From positions 35,036 through 99,035 of the forward strand of contig CAIKBL010000027.1 in the NCBI GenBank assembly GCA_903825645.1: a stretch of 64,000 nucleotides of DNA, read 5' to 3'. Position 1 is the first letter of the stretch. Each line of letters opens with the position of its first letter. Position numbers and translations under genes: made by a program. The DNA comes from an uncultured Pseudomonadota bacterium (lineage in GTDB: Bacteria; Pseudomonadota; Gammaproteobacteria; Ga0077536). Positions 910 through 27,729 of this stretch are shown piece by piece. The notes under the pieces were generated by a model. That model worked only from the letters and a program-made list of their open reading frames with translations. It was not told the origin of the DNA and made no database searches.

Positions 910-2243
910 GGCGACGAGAGACTGCGGCCGACTGTGATTTTTGCCATCCGCGACATTTGAATCCGGCGCTGAAAGGCCTCTCGAACCTGCGTCCGGGTCA
1001 CTTTCTCCACCGCGCGGGTGTAGGTGTCTAGGTAATCCGGCGGCAGATGGTAAAAACCAATCACTGTCAAATATTCCAGTAGTTTGCCATTGCTTTCGAT
1101 GCGCAAAGGGAAACCACCCATGAGGTTTCGCTTCGCCGCTTCCAGTGCAGCCTCCGTGGGACCGTCGGAAAGGAAACGGGAGAGGATGGTTTCGAGGACC
1201 TTCCGAGCTTCCGTTTCTTGATGAAAGTCCGTCTGCAAAGACACCACAAAAGGCCCCGCGGCTGCCATGGGCTCAAAGTAACTGTCGACGGAATAAGATA
1301 GCCCGCGTTTCTCGCGGATTTCGTCAAACAACAACGAGACCGCGCCGTTACCCCCGAGGACGTGATTGCCCACGACGAGCGGAAAGTAATCCGGATCGAG
1401 CCGCGAAATGCCTAGCTGCGCATAAATCACATGGCTCTGCTCGCCCGGAAAGTCCACGCGTCGAAACACCCCTTCGGTCAGGACCGGCACCGCAGGAAGG
1501 GCTGGTGCGGGAACGCCATGGGGTAATCCACCGACCAGGCTTTCAGCCATTTGCACCGCCGCCTGATGGGTAAGGGCCCCGACCATGACAACCAACGCGT
1601 TCTCACTCACGTAATAACGTTGATGGAACGCCGCCACCATGGGTGGTGCTAACGCCGTTACCGAGGCCTCCGTCCCGTTTTCGGGCATCGCGTAGGGGTG
1701 GTGCCCATAGAGTGCCTGATGCATCGCCCGCATCGCCAATGCACGGGGAGATCCCTGCTCTTGACGTAAACCGGCCAGCATTTGCTTGCGCACGCGGGAG
1801 AAATCGCCGGTCGCGAAACGGGGCTTGAGCAACGCGGCCCGCATCAGTGCCGTCGCGGGTGCTGCCAACTCGGGAGCGGTCAGGCATTGCAGGCCCAGCC
1901 ACGCCATATCACGCGTCACCCCCGCGCCCATGTCCGCTCCGGTGTCCTCGAGACGGGCGTGAAACTCATCCGCGCTCAGCCTGTCCGTCCCCTCATCGAG
2001 CAGGGCGTTGGTGAGTATCGAAATCCCCGGGGTAGACTCATCTGCGGCGCTACCGGCGGCAAACACAACGCGCAGTTTTACCATGGGAATTTCAGGCGCC
2101 GCGACGAATAAGACCTGGATCCCATTACTCGTCGTCCACCGCTCGATCACCGGGGAGGCCTGGCAGGGCAGACTCAACACGAGCGTGCACCAGAGCAATA
2201 GCGGGTAACGCGACCGGACGGTGCGTCCATGGCGATTATTCAT
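906..2243 (-). CDS. M16 (pitrilysin/insulinase) family zinc peptidase, likely the non-catalytic partner subunit
   Basis: 445 aa with a signal peptide and M16 C-terminal domain features. It has no HxxEH motif and overlaps the upstream M16 gene by 8 nt, the typical paired arrangement. Confidence 0.7.
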   Translation of the reverse strand: MNNRHGRTVRSRYPLLLWCTLVLSLPCQASPVIERWTTSNGIQVLFVAAPEIPMVKLRVVFAAGSAADESTPGISILTNALLDEGTDRLSADEFHARLEDTGADMGAGVTRDMAWLGLQCLTAPELAAPATALMRAALLKPRFATGDFSRVRKQMLAGLRQEQGSPRALAMRAMHQALYGHHPYAMPENGTEASVTALAPPMVAAFHQRYYVSENALVVMVGALTHQAAVQMAESLVGGLPHGVPAPALPAVPVLTEGVFRRVDFPGEQSHVIYAQLGISRLDPDYFPLVVGNHVLGGNGAVSLLFDEIREKRGLSYSVDSYFEPMAAAGPFVVSLQTDFHQETEARKVLETILSRFLSDGPTEAALEAAKRNLMGGFPLRIESNGKLLEYLTVIGFYHLPPDYLDTYTRAVEKVTRTQVREAFQRRIQMSRMAKITVGRSLSSP

Positions 2244-3600
2244 GCGCCTTCCCCGGGGTAAGGTAGGCGATAGTCGCGCTGTCGTCCTTAAAATATTTGC
2301 GGGCTACGGCCTGAACCTGGGCCGAGGTCACCGCCTGAATATTAGCCACATACTGTTCCTCTAAATGCCAGTCGAGCCCTATCACCGCCAATCCTCCAAT
2401 CCGCATCGCTTGACCAAACAGCGAGTCCTGCTGATAAACCGCATCTGCCACTACCCCCGTTTTAATGCGCGCTAATTCCTTGGCCGTCGGTGGCGTATTC
2501 TGAACGGCCTCGAGCTGCGCCTTGAGGGCGGCCTCGAGCTGCTCGAGACTGATCCCTTCGCGAGGCTCACCCTCAAGCGTGAACAGATCGGGCAGCCGCG
2601 CCGCGCCCGTATAGGTCGCGTTCGCCCCAAGTGCTATTTCTTGACCGCGGACAAGCTCGCGCTCAAATCGCGCACTCGCGCCCCCGTCTAGGGTCGCCGC
2701 GAGGACGTAAAGCGCGTAGATCTCCCACGCAGCTACCGGCGGATCTGCTTTGCCGACTTGCGTCAGACCGGGCACTTTGTAGTTCATCACAAGGCGCGGC
2801 AAGCGCAATTTCGGGCTCGTGATCGTGAGCCTTTTGAGACCACTTTGAACCACTTCCGGGCGCGTCTTGAGCACCACCGGCTTATGAGCGGGCATTGCCC
2901 CGAAATGCGTTTGCGCCATTTCTTTGATGGCCGCAACGGTCACATCCCCGACCACCACCAGAATGGCGTTATTGGGTGCGTAGTAACGTTTATACCATCG
3001 GCGCAATTCGGTCAGTTTCATCTGCGCAATATCAGCGGACCATCCGATAACCGGTTGGCGATAGGGACTGGTCTGCCACGTATGTGCCTGAATAGCCTCC
3101 ATCGCCATCGCTTGCGCGTTATCCTCGGTGCGCAAACGACGCTCCTCGCGAATGACTTTGATCTCGTTGGCGAACTCGACGGGGTCGAGTTCGAGTGATT
3201 GCATCCGTTCGGCTTCCAGTGCGAGCGCTTGATCCACATCGCCCGCCGCTCGCTCCTCGTAGTAGGTCGTGTAGTCGGCCGTCGTAAAGGCGTTTTCCTG
3301 TCCCCCACTCGCGGCGATACGTTTAGAGTATTCGCCCGTCACAAGGTGTCGAGTCCGTTTAAACATCATGTGCTCAAGGGCATGAGAAACGCCCGTGGCG
3401 CCATCAAGTTCGTAACTACCACCGACCTTGTACCAGACCTGCACCACGACAACCGGCGCGCGATGGTCGACCTGAACGATGACCCGCAGGCCGTTGTGCA
3501 GTGAGAACTCCTCGGCGCGGGAATGGACCACGAGAGACTCTGTCCCCGAGGCGGTGGCGGCTGACAGCAACAGGCCAAGCCAGAGTAGGTGTTTGAACAT
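2236..3600 (-). CDS. M16 family zinc peptidase, catalytic subunit
   Basis: Contains the inverted zinc-binding motif HALEH (HxxEH). The signal peptide MFKHLLWLGLLLSAATA begins at the internal Met, so the start is placed at 3600 rather than the ORF-track 3690. Confidence 0.8.
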   Translation of the reverse strand: MFKHLLWLGLLLSAATASGTESLVVHSRAEEFSLHNGLRVIVQVDHRAPVVVVQVWYKVGGSYELDGATGVSHALEHMMFKRTRHLVTGEYSKRIAASGGQENAFTTADYTTYYEERAAGDVDQALALEAERMQSLELDPVEFANEIKVIREERRLRTEDNAQAMAMEAIQAHTWQTSPYRQPVIGWSADIAQMKLTELRRWYKRYYAPNNAILVVVGDVTVAAIKEMAQTHFGAMPAHKPVVLKTRPEVVQSGLKRLTITSPKLRLPRLVMNYKVPGLTQVGKADPPVAAWEIYALYVLAATLDGGASARFERELVRGQEIALGANATYTGAARLPDLFTLEGEPREGISLEQLEAALKAQLEAVQNTPPTAKELARIKTGVVADAVYQQDSLFGQAMRIGGLAVIGLDWHLEEQYVANIQAVTSAQVQAVARKYFKDDSATIAYLTPGKAHE

Positions 3601-3745
3601 GGCAGATCTCCGCAATGAGTCACGTACCCGGTCAAAAAACAGGTTTATATCGCGCTCGAGGTCGATTATTTTCAGGTAGCGCTCTAGCATACCGCATCAT
3701 CTCGACCGGTAGATGGCATCCCCAACATCAGCGTAACAACCCTTT

Positions 3746-4654
3746 ATGTTCAAACGACTCAAAGAGGGCATTGCCCGTACCCGCGACGGCCTCCTCAACC
3801 GTATCAGTCGGTTGTTCGGACGGCGTGAGCCTATTGATGCAGCGTCACTCGAAACGCTCGAAAATGCCTTGTTGCTGGCAGATACGGGGGTTCAGACCAC
3901 CGGAATCATCATGCGCGCCGTCAAACAACGTGCACGAGGGGATGTTCCGCTGCTGGAGATCTTGCGCGCCGAGATGGTCGCAGCGCTGACACCCTCAGCC
4001 AAACCACTCGTCATTCCTGCCGATCAGCAAGGGCCGTTCGTCTTGCTGGTGGTCGGGGTGAATGGAGTCGGCAAAACCACCACCATCGCCAAGATCGGTC
4101 GACACCTACAAAGTGCAGGCCTCCAAGTCATGTTCGCGGCGGGAGATACCTTCCGGGCCGCCGCTGTCGAACAGCTCAAGACGTGGGGCGAGCGGCTGAA
4201 AATCCCGGTGATCGCGCAGGGGCCAGGGGCAGATCCCGCGTCGGTTATTTTCGACGCTTACAGCGCGGCGACTGCACGAGGGGTGCAGGTTCTCATTGCG
4301 GACACGGCCGGTCGTTTGCACACCCAAAGCGGATTAATGGCGGAGCTCGGCAAAATACGCCGCGTGCTGGGCAAACAAAACGCCGCGGCACCGCACGAAA
4401 CCTTATTGGTGTTGGACGCCACGATGGGCCAAAACGCCCTGCAGCAAGCACAAGCTTTCCACCAAGCGGTAGCCCTTGATTCGATTGTGCTGACCAAACT
4501 GGACGGTACCGCCAAGGGGGGGATCGTGTTTGCCTTGGCAAGCGCGCTGGGTTTGCCGCTACGCTTCATTGGTGTCGGTGAGCAACTCGACGACTTGCAG
4601 GTTTTCAACGCCGAGCAATTTGTGGCCGCCCTGCTCGGCAGTGAGGCATCCTGA
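3746..4654 (+). CDS. ftsY: Signal recognition particle receptor FtsY, short NG-domain-only form
   Basis: 302 aa with the SRP GTPase P-loop GVNGVGKTTTIAKIG, the DTAGR motif and TKLDGTAKGG. There is no acidic A-domain. Confidence 0.9.
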   Translation: MFKRLKEGIARTRDGLLNRISRLFGRREPIDAASLETLENALLLADTGVQTTGIIMRAVKQRARGDVPLLEILRAEMVAALTPSAKPLVIPADQQGPFVLLVVGVNGVGKTTTIAKIGRHLQSAGLQVMFAAGDTFRAAAVEQLKTWGERLKIPVIAQGPGADPASVIFDAYSAATARGVQVLIADTAGRLHTQSGLMAELGKIRRVLGKQNAAAPHETLLVLDATMGQNALQQAQAFHQAVALDSIVLTKLDGTAKGGIVFALASALGLPLRFIGVGEQLDDLQVFNAEQFVAALLGSEAS

Positions 4655-5113
4655 ACGGTCAAGCCAACCCGCCGCCGTGAGCCAACTGACGGCATCTTGG
4701 GCGTCTTCCCGAAACCACGCGGCGGCCGTGCCCAGACGGAAGCTATAACCCCAGGCATCCATGTCCGCAAACATCGCTTCCCTGCCAAACCCGGGCAGCC
4801 GCTCGGCCAGCAGCACCGAGAGGTAACACACCGCGCATTCTTCAAGGTCGTCACCACCGGCATCCCGGTCGAGACGTTCGCGCCGCGTCGCATCCATACA
4901 CAGGAAATGGCACGCCTCGTGAAGGGCCGAGTTCAAGGGCGTTTCGGGACAGACATACAGTCGGTTACCAAGCAGACCTGCTTCCGGCTCACCCCAGTAG
5001 CTGCCGGGGATTGGACTCCCCGCAGGAAGATGGATGATCTGCAGTTGATAGTCGAGAAAGAGGGCTGACAGGGCACGCGCGACCACCGCGTGTGCGAGAC
5101 CCACCAGCGTCAT
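4559..5113 (-). CDS. Hypothetical protein with an HExxH (HEACH) metallopeptidase-like motif
   Basis: 184-aa ORF preceded by a GGAG RBS about 6 nt upstream of the ATG. It contains LHEACHFLCMD. Its C-terminal approximately 32 codons overlap the ftsY 3' end in convergent orientation. It sits in the slot where ftsE-ftsX are normally found. Confidence 0.4.
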   Translation of the reverse strand: MTLVGLAHAVVARALSALFLDYQLQIIHLPAGSPIPGSYWGEPEAGLLGNRLYVCPETPLNSALHEACHFLCMDATRRERLDRDAGGDDLEECAVCYLSVLLAERLPGFGREAMFADMDAWGYSFRLGTAAAWFREDAQDAVSWLTAAGWLDRSGCLTAEQGGHKLLGVENLQVVELLTDTNEA

Positions 5114-5255
5114 GGACGATCTCCGGCAACACAGGTCTGGAGTTGCCCGTAGGTCGCCTTGATCTCGCTCAAGCGGCGACGGTTCCCTTCGTGCGAACCT
5201 GCAAATCCGTCGCGTCGATTTGCAAAAAAAACAGCGACCGGATGTTTTTTTTGTC

Positions 5256-5282
5256 TTAGCACTCGAGATAGACGAGTGCTAA
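5256..5282. promoter_or_regulatory. Perfect 10-bp inverted repeat TTAGCACTCG-N7-CGAGTGCTAA, 37 nt upstream of the rpoH ATG
   Basis: Read directly from the sequence. It is not followed by a T-run on either strand, so it is an operator or 5'-UTR stem-loop rather than an intrinsic terminator. Confidence 0.4.
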
Positions 5283-5318
5283 TATTGGCACCATCAGGTT
5301 TACGGGGGTTTAGACACC

Positions 5319-6182
5319 ATGACTGCAACGTTAAATAATCTGCTTGTTCCGGTGGGTTCATTAGAGTCCTACATCGCCTCCGTCAATCGGGTGCCGATGC
5401 TGAGCGAAGGTGAGGAGCGCGCGCTGGCAGAACGTTATCAAAATGAAAACGATCTGGACGCCGCGCGCCAGCTTGTCCTGTCCCACTTGCGCTTTGTGGT
5501 CCGGGTCGCTCGCGGCTATAGCGGTTACGGTCTGGCACAGAACGACTTGGTACAAGAGGGCAATATTGGCCTCATGAAAGCCGTTAAACGTTTCAACCCG
5601 ACACTCGGGGTGAGATTGGTTTCCTTCGCGGTGCACTGGGTCCGCGCGGAGATCCACGAATTTATTCTGCGCAACTGGCGGATCGTCAAAGTCGCCACGA
5701 CTAAATCGCAACGCAAATTGTTCTTCAATCTGCGAAGCGCCAAACAGCGGCTGGGGTGGATGAATGCACAGGAGGTCGCCGCCATTGCCAAGGATCTGGG
5801 CGTCGAAACCCGTGATGTCCTGCTGATGGAAGAGCGGCTGAACGCGCACGATCAGTCCTTCGATCCGACGGTCGAAGACGGGGAAGAAGATTTTTCGCCC
5901 GCCGCTTATCTCACCGATTCCCGATTCGAACCGACGCGCCAACTTGAAATCCTTGAAACGGCGCAGCAAGAACGTACCGATCTCGTCGGCGCGCTGGCTA
6001 AACTTGATGCCCGCAGCCGCGACATCGTGGCCAGCCGATGGCTCGTCGAACCCAAGTCAACTTTGCAGGAACTAGCCGAAAAATACAAAGTGTCCGCCGA
6101 GCGGATCCGCCAGCTGGAGGCCAATGCTATGGCCAACATGCGCAAAAAGCTGGGTGTCAATCTGCTCGTCGCTGCTGATTAA
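5319..6182 (+). CDS. rpoH: RNA polymerase sigma-32 factor RpoH
   Basis: 287 aa carrying the RpoH box QRKLFFNLR together with sigma-70 regions 2 and 4. Confidence 0.9.
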
Positions 6183-6265: not shown

Positions 6266-7186
6266 TCACGTGAGGGCCGCACGCATCAGCAGCCAGTAGT
6301 GGTCGACGAACAAGACCACAAACAGCGCTGTCAGGTAGACAATGGAATATTTGAACGTCGCATAGGCGAGTTCATCCCGCGTATCAAACTGCATCCGAAT
6401 AGCGTAATACAAGGCCCCCACGTTGAGGCATACAGCGCCAACAAGGTAGGGGATCCCACACATGTAGGTGGCGAACGGCAAGAGCGTCACAGCCACCAGC
6501 AAAAACGTATACAACAGCACGTGCAACCGCGTGAAGGCCGTGCCGTGTGTGATCGGCAACATCGGGATTTTGGCTTTTGCGTACTCATGACGACGGTAGA
6601 TGGCCAGCGCCCAGAAATGAGGCGGCGTCCAGGCAAAAATAATAAGGAAAAGTAACAGCGCATGCGGGTCGAGGGTCCCGGTAACGGCGGTCCAACCGAG
6701 CACCGGTGGCGCCGCGCCTGCCGCGCCTCCAATGACAATATTGAGCGGCGTCGCGTGCTTCAAATACATCGTGTAAATCACGGCGTATCCAATCAAGGAC
6801 AGAAACGTCAGCACCGCCGTTAACACATTGATAAACGTAATCAAAAGAAACATCGACAGAAACCCGAGCACCAGCGCGAATACCAACGCTTGTCCCGTCT
6901 GCATCTCGCCTTGCGGCAACGGACGATTTTGCGTCCGCGCCATTAGGGCATCAATACGATGCTCTGCAACATGATTAATAGCCGCGGCAGAAGCGGCCGC
7001 GAGGCCGATACCGAGCGTCGCGACGATCAAGGTTGAAAGGGGCACCAAGCCTGGCGTGGATAATAACATCCCGATGATGGCGGTGAAAATTATGAGTGAA
7101 ACGACCCTGGGCTTGCAAAGCTCAAGATATTCACGCCACTTGGGTGGATTCAGGGGGAGGGAGGGTTGGACTGTGTCATCGATCAT
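6266..7186 (-). CDS. ctaB: Protoheme IX farnesyltransferase (heme O synthase) CtaB/CyoE
   Basis: UbiA-family polytopic membrane protein starting at MIDDTVQ. The ORF-track N-terminal extension to 7576 overlaps ctaA and is rejected. The ATG overlaps the ctaA stop in an ATGA arrangement. Confidence 0.85.
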   Translation of the reverse strand: MIDDTVQPSLPLNPPKWREYLELCKPRVVSLIIFTAIIGMLLSTPGLVPLSTLIVATLGIGLAAASAAAINHVAEHRIDALMARTQNRPLPQGEMQTGQALVFALVLGFLSMFLLITFINVLTAVLTFLSLIGYAVIYTMYLKHATPLNIVIGGAAGAAPPVLGWTAVTGTLDPHALLLFLIIFAWTPPHFWALAIYRRHEYAKAKIPMLPITHGTAFTRLHVLLYTFLLVAVTLLPFATYMCGIPYLVGAVCLNVGALYYAIRMQFDTRDELAYATFKYSIVYLTALFVVLFVDHYWLLMRAALT

Positions 7187-8175
7187 GTGTAGTTGCCCCG
7201 GCCGATTTGAGGACTCGCGTAACGGAACAGAGTCACGAGACTCAACAGCAACAAGGCGGCCGTCCCGTTGTGCATGACTGCAACTGGGAGCGGTAAGCCG
7301 CGAAGCACGTTGGTGATGCCAAGCATGATCTGAAGCGCAAGCGCGGCGATTATACATGAGGCAATTCGGCGGCCGTGGATATCCGAGACACGCCGCGCGT
7401 AAGCGCAAAGTGCAAGAACCACCACCGCCGTCACCCCCGCGCCTAGCCGGTGCACGACATGAATGGCCGTGCGGGCAGGGGTGTCGAGAACGCCAAATTC
7501 GTAATTTATCCCGAGACCCCGCCAAAGGATAAAGGCATTGTGGAAATCTAGCTGTGGCCACCATTGGCCATGGCATTGTGGAAAATCCACACAGGCAAGC
7601 GCCGCATAATTAGCGCTCGTCCACCCACCCAAAAAAATCTGGCCGGCGAGGGTGACTATCGCAATGCCCGCGAAGCGCCGCAGGCCCTGACGGTTTTTCG
7701 CCCGCGGAAAAGCGCGAGAATCCAGAAAATTCCACCACAGGAGGGACAAAACGGTAAAACCACCGAATAAGTGGCCCACCACAATCAAGGGTTTTAGCAA
7801 CAGCGTCACGGTCCACATACCGAGCAGACCCTGAAACATCACCAACGGGACGAGCCACATCGGGATCGCCATCACGCGCTCGTGACGAACGAACCAGGCG
7901 GCAACCGCCAGCAGCAGTATCAGCGTGCCGAGCGAGGAGGCGAGATAGCGATGAATCATTTCACGCCAAGCCTTACCCGTCTCTAAGGGGCGAGCCGACA
8001 GTTGATCGCTTGGGATCTCGCGCGCCGCCGCCGGCACCAGCAAACGCCCGTAGCAGCCCGGCCAATCGGGACATCCTAGGCCCGCGTCGCTCAGCCGCAC
8101 ATAGGCGCCCTTGACGATGACGATAAGCGCCAACACCGGCAGAATGGCGGACAATAAAAAATAGAGTTTTCGCAT
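7183..8175 (-). CDS. ctaA: Heme A synthase CtaA/COX15
   Basis: 330 aa with multiple transmembrane helices and the conserved Cys pair (GCPDWPGC) and His residues of the COX15/CtaA family. Its position in the cox cluster is as expected. Confidence 0.8.
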   Translation of the reverse strand: MRKLYFLLSAILPVLALIVIVKGAYVRLSDAGLGCPDWPGCYGRLLVPAAAREIPSDQLSARPLETGKAWREMIHRYLASSLGTLILLLAVAAWFVRHERVMAIPMWLVPLVMFQGLLGMWTVTLLLKPLIVVGHLFGGFTVLSLLWWNFLDSRAFPRAKNRQGLRRFAGIAIVTLAGQIFLGGWTSANYAALACVDFPQCHGQWWPQLDFHNAFILWRGLGINYEFGVLDTPARTAIHVVHRLGAGVTAVVVLALCAYARRVSDIHGRRIASCIIAALALQIMLGITNVLRGLPLPVAVMHNGTAALLLLSLVTLFRYASPQIGRGNYT

Positions 8176-8178
8176 CGG

Positions 8179-8730
8179 TTAGCGGATCGCAGAGGCGCGC
8201 AATAGCCGTTTTAGATCTTTGTGAATGGCGCCCAGCGGGCCGTTCCGGTCATAGCGCATCATGAGTTGATGGCGCCAGTCTACCAGCACGATCGACGCAC
8301 GGCCCTCCAGTTTTTCCATTAAAAGCTTCGTTGCTTGTGGATCGACCTGGACTCGGTTCGCATGAATCGAGACGAGGTTAGCGCCGGCCACGATCGCGCG
8401 GACCGAGACACGCTCACTGCCTTCGCCCAGCAACTCGCGAACCATCAACATATCGTTAAGGAGTTTGCCACAACCTTCCGCGCATGGCGCGTTTTCAACC
8501 AGCACAATAGCCCATTCACTCGGCTGCAATTTGAACAGCGGAGCGATGCCCGGCAGTCCCGAATAAGGGCTCAGATCAACAGGGGGCATCAGTAGTTCAC
8601 CGTGGTTGCTGAGCGTCTGGCTGTGCCAACCCAGCCGACCAGAGGCCAGCAGCCAAGCCAGTACGATGGGCCCCACAAAGAGGACCAGAATGAACAGAAT
8701 GGTCAGCCGGTTGCGCGTTTTGGAAGACAT
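8179..8730 (-). CDS. SCO1/SenC-like thioredoxin-fold membrane protein (divergent, CAEGC motif)
   Basis: N-terminal transmembrane helix followed by a thioredoxin-like pattern: WAIVLVENAPCAEGCG, LGEGSERVSVRAIVAG, ASIVLVDWRHQLMMRY. It occupies the PA0111-equivalent slot between surf1 and ctaA. The start is taken at the internal Met MSSKT. Confidence 0.45.
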   Translation of the reverse strand: MSSKTRNRLTILFILVLFVGPIVLAWLLASGRLGWHSQTLSNHGELLMPPVDLSPYSGLPGIAPLFKLQPSEWAIVLVENAPCAEGCGKLLNDMLMVRELLGEGSERVSVRAIVAGANLVSIHANRVQVDPQATKLLMEKLEGRASIVLVDWRHQLMMRYDRNGPLGAIHKDLKRLLRASAIR

Positions 8731-8741
8731 ATCGGTTGGTT

Positions 8742-9467
8742 TCAAAGTGCGCGGCGCACGTTTATTTTGATGTAGAGGAGCAGCAACACAGCCGACATGA
8801 CGAACCATTGAACTGCGTAGGCCTGATGTCTGCTCATCTCCCCGGCGGGGACCGGCCAGTGGCGATCGTAGGCACTTGCCGCATCCGGATTTAAGTAAAG
8901 CAGCGTCGCGGGCACGCCAAACCCCAGCGCCTTCGAAAAAATCTCAGGCTCGGCGCGCTGCGCCCGAAAAACGGTGGCGGATAAGCGTTCAACGGCGTCA
9001 CTTTGGCCGAGCCGGATGCCTGAAACCGGCGGGTTGCCCAAACGCCCTTGCAGCGTCACCTGCTCAGACGAGAGCCTGATTTCGGGTATCCGGGAACGAT
9101 CGGCGCCCATCGCAATCCAGCCGCGCGCAACCATCAGATGGCGCCCACCGGCCACTTCGAACGGCGAGAGGATTTCATACCCGGCCTGGCCTTCCCGAAA
9201 TCGATTATCCAGCAGAAAAGTCGGTTGCAGATAATGACCTGTCGCGGTGATCGCCCGTCCCGATTGCAACCCCGCCGTCAGTGCCCCGCCATCCCACGTC
9301 GCCGCAGGCGCCGCGCGATTCAGTTGGTACCGTTCGAAAAGCGCGCGTTTCTGCTGCGCCCGATCGAGCTGCCAGAGCCCGAGACTAATCAGCGCCGGAA
9401 AAAGTAGAATGGTGACACAGGAGGAAGCGAGTCCTGGCCTGAAACGCCAACGCGCCGCCGCGGTCAT
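8742..9467 (-). CDS. surf1: SURF1 family cytochrome oxidase assembly protein
   Basis: N-terminal transmembrane helix with the SURF1 hallmark LGLWQLDR and a second transmembrane helix at the C-terminus. The start is taken at the internal Met MTAAARW. Confidence 0.7.
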   Translation of the reverse strand: MTAAARWRFRPGLASSCVTILLFPALISLGLWQLDRAQQKRALFERYQLNRAAPAATWDGGALTAGLQSGRAITATGHYLQPTFLLDNRFREGQAGYEILSPFEVAGGRHLMVARGWIAMGADRSRIPEIRLSSEQVTLQGRLGNPPVSGIRLGQSDAVERLSATVFRAQRAEPEIFSKALGFGVPATLLYLNPDAASAYDRHWPVPAGEMSRHQAYAVQWFVMSAVLLLLYIKINVRRAL

Positions 9468-9548
9468 TCGCGGAACCTCCCTCTTACTTGGCACACGCAC
9501 GGCGTGACGGTCGGCGCGATCCACCGGCATTTCGCGAAAGAGGTTCTA

Positions 9549-9764
9549 ATGGAAAACCATCCCTTCATCAAATATCTCGTGATTGGTGTGCTGCTCATGA
9601 TCATCGGGTCATTGGCGAGTGCCTTCAAAGCGCTGTTCACGGGCCCACGGGGGAGCACGGCCGGCGTCAAGGCACTGACCCTCCGCGTCGGTCTCTCAAT
9701 CGGTCTCTTTATCGTACTCATGATCCTATACGCGTTTGGGATCATTCAACCACGCGGGGGCTAA
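9549..9764 (+). CDS. Twin-transmembrane-helix small protein (DUF2909-like), associated with cytochrome oxidase clusters
   Basis: 71 aa with two hydrophobic helices separated by KALTLRVGLS. An AAGAGG RBS precedes it. It is encoded on the strand opposite to the flanking cox genes. Confidence 0.55.
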   Translation: MENHPFIKYLVIGVLLMIIGSLASAFKALFTGPRGSTAGVKALTLRVGLSIGLFIVLMILYAFGIIQPRGG

Positions 9765-9830
9765 ATCGCCGCCGGTCAGCGGTTTCTCAGTATCCGTTAT
9801 CTTCCGAGGAACAGGGGTTTCACCGCAGAC

Positions 9831-9860
9831 AAAAAAGGCGCTCTATGAGCGCCTTTTTTG
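9831..9860. terminator. Bidirectional rho-independent terminator AAAAAAGGCGCTC-tatg-AGCGCCTTTTTT
   Basis: GC-rich stem flanked by an A-run and a T-run, located between the convergent DUF2909 gene (+) and coxC (-). Confidence 0.6.
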
Positions 9861-9877
9861 ACGTCTCGATGGATGGG

Positions 9878-10762
9878 CTAAATCCAGTAGACAAAGATAA
9901 ACAAGCCAATCCAGACCACGTCCACAAAGTGCCAGTACCAAGCGACGGCCTCGAAGGCGAAATGGTGTTCGGGTTTGAAATGACCGCGGATTGACCGCAT
10001 TAAAATCACGAATAACATAATGGTTCCCAAGGTCACGTGGAATCCATGGAAGCCGGTCAGCATGAAAAAGGTCGCGCCGTAGATGCCCGCATTCAAAGTC
10101 AGGCCCAATTCATTGTAGGCGTGTCCGTATTCTTTCGCTTGCAACGACACAAACAAGATGCCCAAGGCGACGGTACACATCAATCCGATGATCAATTGCC
10201 CTCGCTTGTTTAGCTTAAGCGCCCAGTGCGCCCAGGTCACGGTCGCGCCACTGGTCAACAGAATGGCCGTATTCAGTGCCGGCACACCCCAAGCACTCAC
10301 CACTTCTTTCGCTTCCTTGAAGCCGTAATTATTCGGGATTTTCAGCAACGGCCAATCCGCCAGGAAATTCGGCCAAAGGTACATATGGGTGGCTACTTTA
10401 GTTCCTGCGCCAGCCAGCCATGGCACCGACAACACGCGCGTGTAGAACAACGCGCCGAAAAAGGCCGCAAAAAACATGACTTCCGAGAAGATGAACCACA
10501 TCATCCCCATACGGAAACTCGTATCCTCCCAATCGCCGAACTTTCCGTTCTCGCTCTCGGCAATAACGGTTCCGAACCAACCGAAAAGCATATACACAAA
10601 AAGAAGGAACCCCGCGCCCAGTACTTCATGACCCTGGCTGATCTGATTCAGCGTCAGTGCGCCACCCAGAAACATGGTGAAAATCGCGATCGTCGCGATA
10701 ATCGGCCATTGGCTCGATTCGGGTACGTAGTAGTGACGGTGGGCAGTGTGAGCAGTTGCCAT
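9878..10762 (-). CDS. coxC: Cytochrome c oxidase subunit III
   Basis: 294-aa seven-transmembrane protein with the conserved subunit III C-terminal region. Confidence 0.9.
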   Translation of the reverse strand: MATAHTAHRHYYVPESSQWPIIATIAIFTMFLGGALTLNQISQGHEVLGAGFLLFVYMLFGWFGTVIAESENGKFGDWEDTSFRMGMMWFIFSEVMFFAAFFGALFYTRVLSVPWLAGAGTKVATHMYLWPNFLADWPLLKIPNNYGFKEAKEVVSAWGVPALNTAILLTSGATVTWAHWALKLNKRGQLIIGLMCTVALGILFVSLQAKEYGHAYNELGLTLNAGIYGATFFMLTGFHGFHVTLGTIMLFVILMRSIRGHFKPEHHFAFEAVAWYWHFVDVVWIGLFIFVYWI

Positions 10763-10797
10763 AGCGGGGATCTCTCTTTAGAGGTAACTCGATTGCA

Positions 10798-11409
10798 TTA
10801 AATTTTTAAATCTACCGACGCAACGGCATTCGCCGACGCCCGGGCCGTAGCCCGGAAAAAAGTGTAACTGAGTGTCAGCGTCATTATTTTTGGCGGTAGT
10901 TTCGGATTGACGACGAAACGAACCGGCATTTGTTTGGTTTCTCCGGCGGCCAAAGTCTGCTGTGTAAAACAGAAACATTCCGTCTTGCTGAAAAAACGTG
11001 CCGCGGCACTCGGGGCCAAACTGGGTACGGCTTGGCCGGCGACCGCAGCGTTACTCGCATTCGTGGCTTCGAACATCACTAGGGTCTCAGCGCCGGGATG
11101 CACGTCAACATGGGTGATCAAAGGTTTGAATGTCCATGGGAAACCGGCATTTACGCTGGTCAGAAACTCAACCTTCACCACTCGCGCCTGATCTACTTTG
11201 ATCTCTGCCGCTGTGGCCGCAGAGATCCGCCCAGTCTTGCCGTTCAAACCCGTGACATCACAAAACACGCGGTACAACGGGACCAAAGCGTAACCAAAAC
11301 CGAACATGACCAACACCAATAAGAGAAGCCGGGAAATCAGACGCCGGTTGGCGAAATGCAGCGTCGATTTCATGCCGTCAGACGAGATGTCCGAAAAAAT
11401 AGACGGCAT
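10798..11409 (-). CDS. ctaG: Cytochrome c oxidase assembly protein CtaG/Cox11
   Basis: N-terminal transmembrane helix and the Cox11 copper-binding CFCF motif (FSKTECFCFTQQ). The start may instead be at the internal MKSTL. Confidence 0.8.
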   Translation of the reverse strand: MPSIFSDISSDGMKSTLHFANRRLISRLLLLVLVMFGFGYALVPLYRVFCDVTGLNGKTGRISAATAAEIKVDQARVVKVEFLTSVNAGFPWTFKPLITHVDVHPGAETLVMFEATNASNAAVAGQAVPSLAPSAAARFFSKTECFCFTQQTLAAGETKQMPVRFVVNPKLPPKIMTLTLSYTFFRATARASANAVASVDLKI

Positions 11410-11493
11410 AGAAGCCCAGCGAAAGGATCGCGAGAAGCCAAGCGGTACGTCGCGCCCGTTGCCGTCGCATTTCCATGCTGGCCGCTTCCTGCA

Positions 11494-13092
11494 TTACCGG
11501 TAACCACCGTCAATGGTCGCCGGCTCCGGTGGCGTCGCAAAGCTGTGATAGGGCGGCGGTGAAGACAGCGTCCATTCCAGCCCCCGAGCACCCTCCCAGA
11601 CCCTGTCGGTGGCTTTGGCACCGCCACGCACACACTTCACAATGACGATGACAAACATGAATTGAGAAAGACCGAAAACGAATCCGCCGATGCTCGAGAC
11701 CATATTCCAGTCCGCGAACTGCACTGCATAGTCCGGGATCCGACGCGGCATACCGGCAAGCCCGAGGAAATGCTGCGGGAAGAATAAGACATTGACGGAA
11801 ATCGTCGATATCCAGAAATGCCACTTACCGAGCGTCTCGTCATACATATGACCCGTCCACTTCGGCAACCAGAAATAAGTGCCCGCCATCAGCGCAAACA
11901 CCGCCCCGGTGACCAGCACGTAGTGGAAATGCGCGACCACGAAGTACGTATCGTGATACTGGAAGTCGACTGGCGTGACGCCCAACATCAACCCCGAAAA
12001 GCCCCCAATCGTAAAGAGCACGACGAACGCTATCGCGAACAACATGGGTGTCTCGAACGTCATGGAGCTCTGCCACATCGTCGCCACCCAGTTGAAGACT
12101 TTGACGCCGGTCGGTACCGCAATCAGTACCGTGGCATACATAAAGAAGAGCTCACCCGCGAGCGGCATGCCAACCGTAAACATGTGGTGCGCCCAGACGA
12201 TGAACGAGAGGAACGCAATAGCGCCGGCCGCGTAGACCATCGAGCTATACCCGAACAGGGGCTTGCGCGCGAAAGTCGGGATGATCGCAGAGACGATGCC
12301 GAACGCCGGCAAAATCAAAATATAGACTTCAGGATGTCCGAAGAACCAAAAAATATGCTGGAAAAGTACGGGATCACCACCACCGGCAGCGCTGAAGAAG
12401 GAAGTGCCAAAATATTTGTCCGTGAGCAACATCGTGACCGCACCCGCCAATACCGGCATGGACGCGATGAGCAGGAAGGCTGTGATGATCCAGGTCCACA
12501 CGAACAAGGGCAGCTTCATCAAGGTCATGCCCGGTGCGCGCAGGTTGAATACCGTGGCCACCACATTGATAGCACCCGCAATGGAGGAGGCACCCAGAAA
12601 GTGCACCGCAAAAATAAGGAACGGAAACGCCATACCGGTCTGCAGCACTAGCGGCGGTAACATGGTCCAGCCACCAGCGGGACCACCGCCGGGCATGAAC
12701 AGCGTGCTCAGCAACAAGGTGAAGGCGAAGGGCAGAATCCAGAAGCTCCAATTATTAAGCCGGGGTAATGCCATATCCGGCGCCCCGATCATCATCGGGA
12801 TCATCCAGTTCGCGAATCCCGTCCAAGCGGGCATGACGGCGCCGAAGATCATGACGAGTGCATGCAGCGTTGTCATGCTGTTGAACAGTTGGGGATCGAC
12901 GAACTGTAGCCCCGGTTTAAAGAGCTCCAGGCGGATAATCATCGCCATCGCGCCGCCGATGAAAAACATGACGAGCGAAAACACCAAGTACATCGTGCCG
13001 ATGTCCTTGTGATTTGTCGTGGTCAACCAACGGGAAATACCACCGTTATAGTGGTGGCCGTGGTCATCGTGATGGGCTGCTGCTTCGCTCAT
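11494..13092 (-). CDS. coxA: Cytochrome c oxidase subunit I (aa3-type)
   Basis: 532 aa with twelve transmembrane helices and the heme-copper oxidase signature (GHPEVY, histidine ligands). Confidence 0.95.
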   Translation of the reverse strand: MSEAAAHHDDHGHHYNGGISRWLTTTNHKDIGTMYLVFSLVMFFIGGAMAMIIRLELFKPGLQFVDPQLFNSMTTLHALVMIFGAVMPAWTGFANWMIPMMIGAPDMALPRLNNWSFWILPFAFTLLLSTLFMPGGGPAGGWTMLPPLVLQTGMAFPFLIFAVHFLGASSIAGAINVVATVFNLRAPGMTLMKLPLFVWTWIITAFLLIASMPVLAGAVTMLLTDKYFGTSFFSAAGGGDPVLFQHIFWFFGHPEVYILILPAFGIVSAIIPTFARKPLFGYSSMVYAAGAIAFLSFIVWAHHMFTVGMPLAGELFFMYATVLIAVPTGVKVFNWVATMWQSSMTFETPMLFAIAFVVLFTIGGFSGLMLGVTPVDFQYHDTYFVVAHFHYVLVTGAVFALMAGTYFWLPKWTGHMYDETLGKWHFWISTISVNVLFFPQHFLGLAGMPRRIPDYAVQFADWNMVSSIGGFVFGLSQFMFVIVIVKCVRGGAKATDRVWEGARGLEWTLSSPPPYHSFATPPEPATIDGGYR

Positions 13093-13141
13093 TTGCGGTT
13101 CCTCGTTCGACGCAGATTGCAGTATATCAAGGTACGGCGCG

Positions 13142-14029
13142 TTATTGGCGCTGGACCAGAAGGGACCCGGTAGCTACCGGTGAAGCACTGTTTGCGACAG
13201 GCGGCGCGGCTTGTTTATGGCCGGCGATCCACTTGTCGAATTCGGCTTCGGAAACAACGCGGATCACGATCGGCATGAAACCGTGGTCCTTGCCACAAAG
13301 GAGCGCGCATTGCCCGCGATATACCCCTTCTTTTTCGATTTTGGCCCAGGATTCGTTGATGTAACCCGGGATGGCATCGCGTTTCCAACCGAGCGCGGGG
13401 ACCCACCAAGAGTGAATCACGTCGCCGGCGGTGGTGAGAAAACGTATCTTCTTATTTACGGGTAGTACGATTTCGTTATCAACGTCCAGCAGATAATTCT
13501 CTACCGTCGTCGGGTCAATTCCAGAACCCAGTTGACGGGCGACGTTACTTTTCTGGGAAAGCGCGGCAAATACTTCAACACCGCGATCGAGGTACTCGTA
13601 ACGCCATCTCCACTGATAACCCGTCACCTTGATGGTCAGGTCGGACTTACCGACATCCTCCATCATGATAAGCGCCTTGGTGGCGGGAACAGCCATTGCG
13701 ATCAAAATGGCAAAAGGCACGATCGTCCATAGGACTTCAACGGTGGTACTTTCGTGCCACTGTGCTGCAACCGCCCCTTGCGATTTGCGAAATTTAAGAA
13801 TGGACAGAAAGATCGCGCCGAACACGACGATCCCGGTCACAACACAAACCCACAGGATCAACATGTGCAGGTTGTACACGATGTTGCTGTAGGGGGTGAC
13901 ACCCCGGGGAAGATTTAACTCCCAACTGGCATTCGCCATCGCCGGCAGCATCGCCAAAATCGACGCTAGGACAACACCCATGCGACCAGACCGTGTAATC
14001 AAACTCATCATGCTATTAGCTCCCCACAA
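13142..14029 (-). CDS. coxB: Cytochrome c oxidase subunit II
   Basis: Signal peptide and two transmembrane helices, CuA-site motif DVIHSWWVPALG, plus the Cys/His cluster. Confidence 0.9.
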   Translation of the reverse strand: MWGANSMMSLITRSGRMGVVLASILAMLPAMANASWELNLPRGVTPYSNIVYNLHMLILWVCVVTGIVVFGAIFLSILKFRKSQGAVAAQWHESTTVEVLWTIVPFAILIAMAVPATKALIMMEDVGKSDLTIKVTGYQWRWRYEYLDRGVEVFAALSQKSNVARQLGSGIDPTTVENYLLDVDNEIVLPVNKKIRFLTTAGDVIHSWWVPALGWKRDAIPGYINESWAKIEKEGVYRGQCALLCGKDHGFMPIVIRVVSEAEFDKWIAGHKQAAPPVANSASPVATGSLLVQRQ

Positions 14030-19198: not shown

Positions 19199-22718
<3,520 letters not shown>

Positions 22719-22756
22719 TCTCGCGTCTATTTGGAGAAGTGAGGATCGTCTTTAAT

Positions 22757-23857
22757 TCAGAGCCGCATCGGCATAACGACATACTTCGCGCCCGATTCCT
22801 TTCCAGCCTGAATCAGACAACTACTATTCGAGTCGGATAAGACAAAACGTATAGTGTCTCCTTGCAGGACGCTAAGAACGTCCAACAAGTAAGAGACGTT
22901 GAAACCAATCTCTAGAGGCTCCCCGTCGTAGCTAACCTCGATTTCTTCTTCTGCTTCTTCCTGCTCCGGATTATGCGCGGAGGCCTTTAAAACGCCCTTA
23001 CCAAAGTTAAGCCGGACACCCCTGAATTTTTCATTAGACAATATCGACGTTCGCTGCAGCGCTGATTTTGTGGTTTCGCGATCTGCTTCAATAATCTTGT
23101 CGCCGCCCTTAGGTAACACACGCTCGTAATCTGGATATTTTCCATCGACCAGTTTAACGGTTAAGGTCTGGTTCAAGACGGATACGCGCAGCACGTTAGC
23201 GGATATGCCCACGTCGATGGGTGCTGTCGTATGACTCGCTAAGCGCTGAATTTCATTAACCCCTTTACGAGGCACAATCAGCTGGCGGGTTTCTTTCAGA
23301 TCCAAGGGCATCGAATGTTCATTTAAGGCTAACCGATGGCCGTCGGTTGCTACCGCCTTAATCGACGTTTCATTAAGTTCCAGCAACAGCCCGTTCAAAT
23401 AATACCGAACGTCCTCGTGTGCCATGGCGAACTGGGTGCTGGCTATGAGTCCTTGCAATACAGCGCTGTCGATCGTGAACGCGATTTCATCCGTCGCATA
23501 TCCAATGCTAGGGTAATCGGTGGCGGGCAAGGTAGACAGGACAAATCGACTGCGGCCGGATTGAATTCTTATTTTTTTGTCTTTTTCCTCAATCTGCACG
23601 AGGGACTGAGCTGGTAGAGAACGACAAATATCGAGCAGTTTTCGGCCCGATACCGTTAGAACACCTTCCTGGCTAATTTTCGCTACGCTTCGCGCGACCG
23701 CTTCAACTTCCTGATCTGTCGCCGTAATGCTGACGTTCTCCCCTTCCGCTGCAAAAAGCACATTACTAAGTATTGAACCCGTCTGTCGTTTCTCGACGAT
23801 GTTCGCGACAGCCTGAAGTGCTAGCAACAGGTTTTCTCTTTCAATACTTATCTTCAT
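22757..23857 (-). CDS. dnaN: DNA polymerase III beta sliding clamp
   Basis: 366 aa with N-terminus MKISIERENLLLALQAVANIVEKRQT and C-terminus ...MPMRL. Confidence 0.9.
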   Translation of the reverse strand: MKISIERENLLLALQAVANIVEKRQTGSILSNVLFAAEGENVSITATDQEVEAVARSVAKISQEGVLTVSGRKLLDICRSLPAQSLVQIEEKDKKIRIQSGRSRFVLSTLPATDYPSIGYATDEIAFTIDSAVLQGLIASTQFAMAHEDVRYYLNGLLLELNETSIKAVATDGHRLALNEHSMPLDLKETRQLIVPRKGVNEIQRLASHTTAPIDVGISANVLRVSVLNQTLTVKLVDGKYPDYERVLPKGGDKIIEADRETTKSALQRTSILSNEKFRGVRLNFGKGVLKASAHNPEQEEAEEEIEVSYDGEPLEIGFNVSYLLDVLSVLQGDTIRFVLSDSNSSCLIQAGKESGAKYVVMPMRL

Positions 23858-24044
23858 CTTAGTATTAGTTCTATTTAAAGTTAGTAGTTGTAGTAATTAA
23901 ACGGGGGCATAAGTCTAATAGTTATTTTTTTCTTTATAAAACATGTTGATACAACGTATTTTTTGAACGAAAAAAATGTAAAAGTGACGTTGGACCTGTG
24001 GATAACTTGGTGTAACTGAATATCGACACTTAAACCGACCCAAG
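23858..24044. promoter_or_regulatory. AT-rich (about 30% GC) dnaA-dnaN spacer carrying a perfect DnaA box (TTATCCACA at about 23997-24005 on the minus strand); candidate DNA-unwinding or origin-associated element
   Basis: Read from the sequence as ...cctgTGTGGATAActtgg. The flanking A/T-rich runs contrast sharply with the roughly 60% GC of the window. Confidence 0.45.
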
Positions 24045-25400
24045 TTAGCTGCTCAGTATTCTCTCGAGATTGACAAAATCCTCATTGATTTTGTTCTCGG
24101 CGTGCCGCAGCTCCACAATTTTTCTGCACGCATGAATGACAGTAGTATGGTCTCTCCCGCCGAAGGCATCACCAATTTCCGGAAGACTATGATTAGTAAG
24201 CTCTTTTGATAAAGCCATCGCTATCTGTCGCGGTCTTGCAATAGACCGGTTACGGCGTTTCGAGACTAAGTCCGAGACGCGCATCTTGTAATATTCCGCC
24301 ACTGTTTTCTGAATGTTCTCGATGGAGATAAGTTTATCCTGTAGCGCTAACAAATCCTTTAACGCTTCGCGGGCAAAATCAATCGTGATTAAACTGCCTG
24401 AGAAGTGAGCGTTTGCTTCCATTCTATGTAAGGCGCCTTCTAGCTCCCTGATATTCGAACGAAAACGTTTGGCGACGAAAAAAGCCACTTCGTGAGGCAG
24501 CTGCAACCCACTTCGCTCCGCTTTGCTCATCAGGATAGCCACACGGGTTTCGAGTTCTGGCGGCTCTATTGCCACGGTTAGACCCCAACCGAATCGTGAC
24601 TTAAGACGCTCCTCGACACCGATGACCTCTCGCGGATAACGGTCACAGGTCAAAATTATTTGCTGTTGACTTTCAAGTAACGCATTGAAAGTATGAAAAA
24701 ATTCCTCCTGGGAACGTTCTTTTCCTGCAAAAAATTGAATATCATCAATAAGCAAAGCATCTAGGGTTCGATACTTTCTTTTAAATTCGTTGATGGAGTT
24801 GTGTTGCAGCGCCCGAACCATGTCACCCACAAATTTTTCGGAATGGATGTACTGAACCTTGGCATTCGGTTTGCGACTGACGACTAGATTCCCTATCGCC
24901 TGCATGAGATGGGTTTTACCCAACCCGACCCCGCCACAGATGAATAGCGGGTTGTACGCTTTTCCTGGATTTTCAGCCACTTGGAGAGAAGCAGCACGCG
25001 CGAGTTGATTGGATTTGCCTTCGACAAAACTCTCAAAGGAAAAATCTCTCTTCAACCCTTTACTTGGTGGCCCACGCCTAGCGCTATCTGCGGGGGGAGG
25101 GACACCAGGTAGAGGGTCCGGCGTTCGCGCGACCTCAACCTCGGTGGCTTCCGCAACATCGGTGACGACAAACCCAACTTTATCTACGCCACCTTTCGAG
25201 AGATCGCGGGCGACATCTTCTATTTTACGGCCGTATTTATCTCGGACCCATTCACAGACAAACTTGTTAGGCGCCGATACCGTGAGGGTCGAACCCTGCA
25301 CGTAGGCGCTTAGCGGGCGGATCCACGTGTTGTATTGCTGAGGCGTCAGATCGCCTTCCAATATACGCAGAACGGTCGGCCAGGAAAGCGTCATGGGCAT
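24045..25400 (-). CDS. dnaA: Chromosomal replication initiator DnaA
   Basis: 451 aa with the AAA+ Walker [17 protein letters not shown], DnaA box-binding domain IV, and N-terminus WIRPL. Confidence 0.95.
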
Positions 25401-25466
25401 CCAAGGAGGGTTAGTGGCGCCGGTAGAGACACCGACAACCCCCGATTCTAACGGGCGACACCAAAG

Positions 25467-25475
25467 TTATCCACA
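25467..25475. promoter_or_regulatory. Perfect DnaA box TTATCCACA in the dnaA-rpmH divergent promoter region
   Basis: Exact 9-mer. A consensus -35 hexamer TTGACA lies about 10 nt downstream (about 25486-25491), oriented toward rpmH. Confidence 0.6.
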
Positions 25476-25574
25476 GCACGACAAATTGACAGACTTGATG
25501 CCCCGCTAATACCATTGCCCGCCCGCGACTGCAGACGATGTCGCGTCGCCGCTAATTAAATTAAGGTTCCCGTC

Positions 25575-25712
25575 ATGAAAAGAACATATCAACCCAGTAA
25601 GTTAAAGCGTGCCCGTACGCATGGCTTCCGCGCCCGCATGAGCACGAAAGGCGGACGACGGGTGTTGAAGTCGCGCCGCGCGAAAGGCAGAGCCAGACTT
25701 ACGCCGGTTTAA
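25575..25712 (+). CDS. rpmH: 50S ribosomal protein L34
   Basis: 45 aa, [45 protein letters not shown]. It is below the ORF-track size cutoff. Confidence 0.85.
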
Positions 25713-25716
25713 GCCA

Positions 25717-26082
25717 ATCACCGGGTTACCCCGTGAAGCTAGGTTAAGCGGAGGCGATACTTACCTCCGTTTATTCCGAACGGGTCGGCGGTTTCGAACG
25801 ACATACTTCAATGTTTTCATTGCAGGCGGTCGCACCTCGGCCACTAGACTCGGTATCGCCGTATCCAAGCGCATGGTTGCCCGTGCGGTGAATCGCAATC
25901 GGATAAAACGCATTATCCGAGAAACGTTTCGTTCAAATTCACAACGCCTTGGCGGCAGCGATCTTATCGTGCAGGTCAATGCGCCCGCTGGCCGAGCGAG
26001 CTCGGAGAGTCTTTTCCTAGCGCTTCGAGAGCTGTGTGACCAAGTAGTTCAGACTCTAGACCCTATCAATCGCCCGACCTGA
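25717..26082 (+). CDS. rnpA: RNase P protein component RnpA; the start codon is unresolved
   Basis: The in-frame translation ...PREARLSGGDTYLRLFRTGRRFRTTYFNVFIAGGRTSATRLGIAVSKRMVARAVNRNRIKR... aligns with RnpA from about residue 8 onward. No ATG, GTG or TTG is in frame between the upstream stop (about 25666) and the homologous region, so the 5' coordinate is approximate. Confidence 0.7.
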   Translation: MTGLPREARLSGGDTYLRLFRTGRRFRTTYFNVFIAGGRTSATRLGIAVSKRMVARAVNRNRIKRIIRETFRSNSQRLGGSDLIVQVNAPAGRASSESLFLALRELCDQVVQTLDPINRPT

Positions 26083-26092
26083 TATTTTCACT

Positions 26093-27721: not shown

Positions 27722-27729
27722 CGGTAGCG

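Follow-up and report, generated by a model that had tools for sequence, protein, structure and literature searches.

The ftsY-rpoH locus

The DNA examined here (the window) is a 64,000-nucleotide stretch of contig CAIKBL010000027.1 (GenBank assembly GCA_903825645.1, forward strand, positions 35,036 to 99,035) from an uncultured gammaproteobacterium of the GTDB lineage Ga0077536. In this stretch the genes for the signal-recognition-particle receptor (ftsY) and the heat-shock sigma-32 factor (rpoH) lie in the same orientation, separated by a gap of 664 nucleotides (5319-4654-1). The genes ftsE and ftsX are missing from the gap, which is filled by a minus-strand open reading frame (ORF) of 184 amino acids, hereafter ORF184. 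We find that ORF184 is a genuine gene and that its family is widespread yet unnamed. The features of the locus, in window positions, are as follows:

3746-4654, plus strand: ftsY, signal-recognition-particle receptor, 302 amino acids (NCBIfam equivalog TIGR00064, 314 bits, cut-off 260.7; Pfam SRP54, E = 6e-74)
4559-5113, minus strand: ORF184, gene of a conserved HExxH family that lacks annotation, with an ATG start and its stop codon at 4559-4561
4562-4645, minus strand: C-terminal tail of ORF184 (residues 157-184), antisense to the end of ftsY and not conserved (from the alignment and the predicted local distance difference test, pLDDT)
4646-5113, minus strand: conserved catalytic-type domain of ORF184, residues 1-156 (alignment A1 and an alignment of 213 full-length sequences; pLDDT above 88 to about residue 160)
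4838-4843, minus strand: E91-E92, candidate third metal ligand (alignment; predicted helix 89-103)
4907-4921, minus strand: HEACH (H65-E66-A-C-H69), presumed metal-binding and catalytic motif on predicted helix 60-72 (sequence, alignment and model)
5120-5123, minus strand: Shine-Dalgarno sequence GGAG, 6 nucleotides 5' of the ORF184 start codon (read from the sequence)
5114-5318: divergent ORF184/rpoH intergenic region, 205 nucleotides (alignment of the window with loci L003 and L017)
5256-5282, plus strand: perfect controlling inverted repeat of chaperone expression (CIRCE, the HrcA operator), TTAGCACTC-N9-GAGTGCTAA, with zero mismatches, 36 nucleotides 5' of the rpoH ATG
5319-6182, plus strand: rpoH, heat-shock sigma-32 factor, 287 amino acids (NCBIfam equivalog TIGR02392, 395 bits, cut-off 323)

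The first-pass annotation of this DNA had proposed that the short ftsY-rpoH gap leaves no room for ftsE and ftsX, which it placed between the two genes in E. coli. Both parts of the proposal hold. The order rsmD / ftsY-ftsE-ftsX-rpoH is seen in the E. coli K-12 genome; in the window, the coordinates of the gap are exact and the equivalog matches of ftsY and rpoH, in the same orientation, each exceed the NCBIfam cut-off. When E. coli FtsE and FtsX (NC_000913.3) were used as tblastn queries against the window, no match was better than E = 0.23, and a Walker-A/LSGG motif scan detected no ABC-like proteins in the 64 kb. Neither remnants nor relocated copies of ftsE or ftsX were found in the window or in the three related loci described below (L001, L003 and L017).

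The rsmD gene (331-909, Cons_hypoth95) is retained on the far side of ftsY; hence, the order of the neighbourhood has been kept and just ftsEX is gone. Indeed, rsmD, ftsY and rpoH share their relative order and orientation with E. coli. The differences are that the window has a convergent, unrelated gene in place of ftsE and ftsX, that two M16 peptidase genes sit between rsmD and ftsY, and that FtsY is a short form of 302 amino acids, compared with 497 in E. coli. We conclude that ftsEX has left this position in the clade, either by relocation or by loss from the genome.

ORF184 belongs to a widespread family

A search of 5.8 billion protein clusters, limited to 8,000 candidates, returned at least 7,613 homologues of ORF184 at E <= 0.01. 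The 120 best are 147-203 amino acids long and 55-70% identical, and none of them carries a Pfam domain. Furthermore, gene callers have annotated a protein identical to ORF184 on 10 independent contigs, with the same neighbours. Because ORF184 has thousands of homologues and has been called as a gene on 10 contigs, it is not a chance frame. The coordinates, the ribosome-binding site and the HEACH motif reported in the first-pass annotation were all confirmed (the site reads GGAG), and conservation in relatives, a check set beforehand, extends from the sister genomes represented by L003 and L017 to far more distant organisms.

When one genome of each GTDB species was scanned, relatives of ORF184 were detected in at least 596 species. 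Cultured organisms that carry a family member include Steroidobacter gossypii S1-65, Thiocapsa marina 5811 and Thiohalophilus thiocyanatoxydans DSM 16326. The best 80 loci belong mostly to Gammaproteobacteria (Steroidobacteraceae, Woeseiaceae, Chromatiales, Competibacteraceae, Lysobacterales, Thioalkalivibrio, Thiohalophilus and others), with a few metagenome-assembled genomes (MAGs) of Acidobacteriota; Binatia and further Acidobacteriota occur among the protein matches. Two of the contigs that carry family members come from MAGs labelled 'Klebsiella pneumoniae' (L052) and 'Phycisphaerales' (L057), the latter with ahcY/metK neighbours as in Competibacter-type loci, and both labels may reflect mis-binning.

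A library of 1.84 billion proteins clustered at 50% identity contains 559 representatives of the family at E <= 0.001, many of them fragments, which indicates that the family is compact and tightly constrained. The best 150 of these 559 profile matches are all strong, and no bridging relatives to other families were found among them. In the source databases the family is named 'hypothetical protein' throughout, save for one automatic UniRef label, 'IrrE N-terminal-like'.

Predicted architecture of the ORF184 protein

An AlphaFold2 model of ORF184 built with the family alignment reached a pLDDT of 88.1 and a predicted template modelling score of 0.84. The predicted order of elements is a helix at residues 6-20, three short strands, helix 60-72 with the HExxH motif, a short helix, helix 89-103 and three C-terminal helices, an order that in the model coincides with that of a minimal gluzincin-type core. 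HExxH would thus lie on an alpha-helix. By-eye inspection revealed no signal peptide and no membrane segment.

Motif conservation was counted in 213 full-length family sequences plus the query. H65 is found in 205 of these sequences, E66 in 206 and H69 in 206, nearly all the remainder being gaps. The two candidate ligands of the following helix are kept to the same extent (E91 in 206, E92 in 207), as is, to a slightly lesser degree, C96 on the same helix (198). C72, located on the HExxH helix, is present in 185 sequences (87%), while C68 and C93 are kept in 68% and 37%. Other near-invariant motifs are PGSYWGExEAGL, DTPxxSxLHE, RR (77-78) and DMDxWGYxFRLG. The window copy departs from the family at two positions of the consensus LYVRxDTP (4943-4951): it has C55 and E57, residues that are R55 in 193 of the 213 homologues and D57 in 200. 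The syntenic relatives L003 and L017 retain both R55 and D57.

Comparison with known families

Hidden Markov model (HMM) scans of the window protein and 31 aligned family members were run against Pfam (E <= 10), NCBIfam, PHROGs and PADLOC. No model of these collections matched the window protein, and the 31 members gave scattered noise at E <= 10. When the family profile was searched against PDB sequences, chance matches alone were obtained, all with E >= 0.29, and a Foldseek comparison of the ORF184 model with PDB and BFVD produced no significant match.

These searches bear on three suggestions made in the first-pass annotation: (i). Membership in SprT, ImmA/IrrE, DUF4157 or M48 families, for which an HMM check had been proposed, finds no support, as no match was detected even at E <= 10. 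(ii). The anticipated likeness to the zincin fold stands in part. The resemblances of the predicted fold are all weak and all to zincin-like proteins, and the weak viral Foldseek matches include several IrrE-like and SprT-like proteins; against PDB and BFVD, however, the likeness does not reach significance. (iii). The label 'metallopeptidase-like' is correct as far as the motif goes, HExxH being essentially invariant; a protease activity is not secured, however, and the nearest motif is that of the hydroxylase EpmC.

Among the closest known systems, Peptidase M78 (ImmA/IrrE, PF06114) was rejected upon finding no match at E <= 10 in any of the 31 members. The M78/ImmA-IrrE group (COG2856, including PrpR and CapP) differs from the ORF184 family in other respects: the family has no adjacent Xre/helix-turn-helix partner, its neighbours are housekeeping genes with no prophage or defence context (and no PHROGs or PADLOC matches), and its conservation greatly exceeds that of typical ImmA/IrrE proteins. 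Peptidase M48 (HtpX/BepA/Ste24) was likewise rejected, as ORF184 lacks a match to the family HMM. The M48/M56 gluzincins (BepA, HtpX, Ste24, BlaR1) and the minigluzincins (proabylysin, projannalysin, selecase) also count among the closest systems. ORF184 can be read as a remote zincin-like fold that forms a new family in that class, outside the named peptidase families.

Relationship with EpmC

The sole Pfam family matched by several members was EpmC, with 4 of 31 members, a best E of 0.14 and scores below the gathering threshold; the window protein itself was not matched by the EpmC HMM. EpmC (YfcM in E. coli) is an Fe(II)-dependent hydroxylase of elongation factor P (EF-P) with a YbeY-like, metalloprotease-like fold, and its metal ligands are H59, H63 and E98 (PMC4231759). 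Both EpmC and YbeY use the same motif and fold for other chemistries (PMC4231759). Since a hydroxylase carries the same motif, HExxH alone does not imply a protease.

After confirmation of the E. coli YfcM sequence against PDB 3WTR/4PDN, an EpmC profile was built for comparison. Aligned with the ORF184-family profile using hhalign, it matched over 23 columns (probability 49%, P = 1.7e-4) that comprise S-A-L-H-E-x-x-H-[WY]-(7)-R-R-x-x-x-D with identical spacing in both families. Cross-family HMM scores reached 13.7 bits, compared with a maximum of 6.2 bits for shuffled or reversed controls. The triad H-x3-H...E on two consecutive helices would also be present in ORF184 (H65, H69 and E91/E92), as judged from the model.

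One may propose that the ORF184 family is distantly related, or analogous, to EpmC and consists of non-proteolytic Fe(II) or metal enzymes that hydroxylate or otherwise modify some conserved protein, for example a translation factor. EpmC provides the most widely shared of the weak Pfam matches, and the profile alignment, the margin of the cross-family scores over controls and the hydroxylase activity associated with the H59/H63/E98 site all speak for the proposal, as do the similar sizes of the two proteins (182 and about 150-180 amino acids). The distribution of the families can be counted on the same side: the best 80 ORF184 loci are non-Enterobacterales except for one Klebsiella-labelled MAG contig, and the 120 best EpmC matches, where the source is named, are all Enterobacterales; the listed members of the two families belong to different orders. 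However, the likeness is confined to about 23 columns and every score lies under curated thresholds, which falls short of whole-domain homology with EpmC (PF04315). The loop between the two helices, essential in EpmC, has 27 amino acids there and 16 in the ORF184 family, and the loop sequences are unrelated except for RR. PGSYWGExEAGL, C72/C96 and DMDxWGY are missing from EpmC (3WTR, 4PDN), and no efp, epmA or epmB gene was observed near any ORF184-family member. Moreover, the comparison was picked after the weak match had appeared. Because the likeness is local and sub-threshold, we hold an EpmC-like enzyme as a rival, on the whole unlikely, and not as our main interpretation.

A more elaborate version of the same idea is that ORF184 represents an undescribed, strongly conserved cytoplasmic metalloenzyme family of common descent with EpmC. 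Its members, typically expressed from a leuS-lptE operon, would modify a conserved housekeeping protein after translation in a metal-dependent manner, or cleave it with high specificity, in Gammaproteobacteria where no canonical EpmC was seen. This version strikes us as rather improbable.

Gene context across the family

The gene context was examined in 80 loci from distinct species and two more obtained by exact-protein look-ups, and the resulting 82 loci were searched with the FtsY, RpoH, M16 and UbiA proteins of the window. In 79 loci the neighbourhoods differ from that of the window, and the commonest arrangement is leuS-lptE-[gene]. An LptE-like ORF lies directly upstream of the family gene, on the same strand, in 29 of the 82 loci; under stricter gene calling, the complete leuS-lptE-[gene] arrangement is found in 17. 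The distance from the upstream gene is typically -4 to +32 nucleotides, and the identities of leuS and LptE were confirmed by Pfam. Six loci show a different arrangement, in which a lipid-A acyltransferase gene and a rhodanese gene precede the family gene and a GalU-type nucleotidyltransferase gene follows. Smaller groups of loci place it beside metK/ahcY, a MiaB-like radical-SAM gene or a two-component system.

Such contexts raise the possibility that the ORF184 family serves biogenesis of the cell envelope or lipopolysaccharide (LPS) from the cytoplasmic side, for instance by controlling an enzyme of the LPS pathway as a protease or amidase. The leuS-lptE context, counted in about 20-29 of the 82 loci and with gaps as short as those indicated above, points in that direction, and so do the six acyltransferase loci. 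A connection built on the lptE, lpxL and galU contexts is nonetheless speculative, and although it is compatible with our main explanation, we deem it improbable.

Proximity to rpoH and the CIRCE operator

The first-pass annotation had regarded the divergent pairing of a putative metalloprotease-like gene with rpoH as suggestive. Comparison of loci does not support a functional pairing. The ftsY gene is convergent to an ORF184-family gene in 3 of the 82 loci only: L001, which belongs to the same organism, L003 and L017, with FtsY and RpoH proteins 80-81% and 76% identical, respectively, to those of the window. An rpoH gene adjacent to the family gene is found in two of the 82 loci, and both the window and L003 show the divergent arrangement. 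The ORF184 gene of L017 is separated from rpoH by about 4.2 kb of DNA (1763-5923) with two unrelated genes (665 and 594 amino acids), which shows that the divergent pairing is not maintained. By eye, the inserted ORFs of L017 look like a flavin monooxygenase and a pyrroloquinoline quinone-dependent dehydrogenase. As 79 of the 82 loci have other neighbourhoods, there is no conserved tie to the heat-shock sigma factor, and the location of ORF184 beside rpoH appears to be local synteny inherited in a small clade and not a regulatory pairing.

CIRCE was found upstream of rpoH in L001, L003 and L017 as well. No occurrence was expected by chance in the scan, even with three mismatches permitted. When the window, L003 and L017 were aligned, CIRCE was the sole conserved block of the ORF184/rpoH intergenic region. 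CIRCE remains at rpoH in L017, with ORF184 4 kb distant; the operator therefore belongs to rpoH and not to ORF184, and co-regulation of ORF184 by CIRCE was rejected on the same observation. Immediately upstream of CIRCE, at 5223-5253, the window also contains an AT-rich inverted repeat, CAAAAAAAACA-(9 nt)-TGTTTTTTTTG, that is not conserved in L003 or L017.

CIRCE/HrcA control of rpoH has been reported in Geobacter sulfurreducens (PMC545781). The likeness lies in a perfect operator just 5' of rpoH; the difference is that the window belongs to an unclassified gammaproteobacterial lineage. Judging by this sequence, the observation suggests that the sigma-32 gene may be under HrcA repression in this gammaproteobacterial clade.

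Turnover of sigma-32 is controlled by proteolysis (FtsH), and it is conceivable that ORF184 encodes a metalloprotease coupled to rpoH, for example one that degrades or processes sigma-32 or its regulator, the two genes being divergent for the sake of co-regulation. The HExxH motif and the intergenic region of 205 nucleotides shared by divergent genes in the window and in L003 would fit such a role. However, 79 of the 82 loci lack rpoH within about 6 kb, the genes are set apart in L017 with CIRCE remaining at rpoH, no intergenic block other than CIRCE is conserved, and in most Gammaproteobacteria with an rpoH gene no such pairing was observed. We therefore consider a coupling of this kind highly improbable.

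Overlap with ftsY

The 3' ends of ORF184 and ftsY overlap on opposite strands by 96 nucleotides (4559-4654), a measurement that agrees with the approximate value in the first-pass annotation. Conservation of the family ends around residue 156, and the tail columns (residues 157-184) are gaps in at least 78% of the homologues. Confidence of the model also drops in the tail, with pLDDT values of 47-49 in the final three blocks of 10 residues and below 50 at residues 162-169, 171-173 and 179-183. In the syntenic relatives, the overlap amounts to 36 nucleotides in L003 and is absent in L017. Because the overlap varies (96, 36 and 0 nucleotides) and the tail is not conserved, we conclude that the overlap is specific to the lineage, a run-on of the frame to the following stop codon, and not a conserved feature. 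A scan of 4400-5500 detected no intrinsic terminator between the convergent genes.

The overlap and the changes at two near-invariant positions might be taken as signs of a spurious frame (an antisense or shadow ORF) or of a pseudogene in decay that occupies the scar of a deletion, but the frame is intact, it has a good Shine-Dalgarno sequence, its conserved part lies outside ftsY, and its thousands of homologues and confident fold refute a spurious ORF, leaving this explanation with a negligible chance of being correct.

A probable explanation of the locus

The explanation that we consider probable is that the window carries a rearranged version of the rsmD / ftsY-ftsE-ftsX-rpoH locus in which ORF184 encodes a small zincin-like metalloenzyme, adjacency to rpoH is mere synteny, the tail of ORF184 is a run-on into ftsY, and CIRCE serves rpoH. 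Its parts may be outlined as follows: (i). A lineage-specific rearrangement of the neighbourhood would have removed ftsEX from the site, and the space is now taken up by a gene of a widespread, unnamed family, a gene that is intact and looks expressed. (ii). The product would be a small cytoplasmic single-metal enzyme built on a remote zincin-like core; according to the model, one metal ion may be held jointly by the helix with HExxH and the 'EE' helix that comes after it. (iii). The enzyme would most likely hydrolyse one particular peptide or amide bond of a substrate that is conserved in the cell; a metal chemistry other than hydrolysis, like that of EpmC, is a possible alternative. (iv). 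Elsewhere, the family gene would usually be the last gene of a leuS-lptE operon; here, its frame would run beyond the usual family end into ftsY antisense, producing the convergent overlap. (v). rpoH would be served by its own conserved CIRCE/HrcA operator within the shared intergenic region.

Several points weigh against this explanation. ORF184 has no matches to peptidase-family HMMs, and the term 'hydrolase' is based on motif and topology. The geometry of the metal site (H65, H69 and E91/E92) is a prediction from the order of helices in the model. The R55->C and D57->E changes may, on sequence grounds, alter activity or specificity in the window copy. Lastly, the contexts of the family are heterogeneous and indicate no single pathway.

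Other features of the window

The genes gyrB, recF, dnaN and dnaA (minus strand), followed by yidC and mnmE (plus strand), were identified with Pfam at 19199-29076. This is a chromosomal origin neighbourhood, and it places the ftsY-rpoH locus about 20 kb from the likely oriC. Directly downstream of rpoH, a cytochrome c oxidase assembly cluster (6266-14029) comprises genes for a UbiA-type heme O synthase, COX15/CtaA, SURF1, COX3 and CtaG; the 436-amino acid ORF listed at 6266-7576 is over-extended, as gene callers assign it 306 amino acids. In L001 (5733-7201), the M16 peptidase gene is split across frames, with 99.8% identity over residues 1-426 and 83% in another frame thereafter, a pattern that probably reflects an assembly frameshift or strain variation. 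A gathering scan for Rfam families and a search for tRNAs found none in the window.

Significance

ORF184 belongs to what we read as a new, unannotated zincin-like family within the known HExxH class. The family is present in at least 596 species and its putative metal site is near-invariant, yet it has no Pfam, NCBIfam, PHROGs or PADLOC model and no descriptive name, and Foldseek comparison with PDB found no close solved structure. The listed homologues are drawn from several orders of Gammaproteobacteria and from a few further phyla, and their identities of 55-70% suggest that this enzyme of 150 amino acids has a conserved macromolecular partner or substrate. A housekeeping role is suggested by the co-transcription with leuS-lptE that is often apparent.

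In addition, the locus is evidence of a clade where ftsEX is no longer located between ftsY and rpoH and where a perfect HrcA operator lies at rpoH. Because a pairing of protease and sigma-32 is unsupported, the locus offers a starting point for annotating a family but no new mechanism of regulation. Definition of the ORF184 family and of its substrate would fill an annotation gap and would test the reuse of the HExxH fold for non-proteolytic chemistry, of which EpmC and YbeY are examples.

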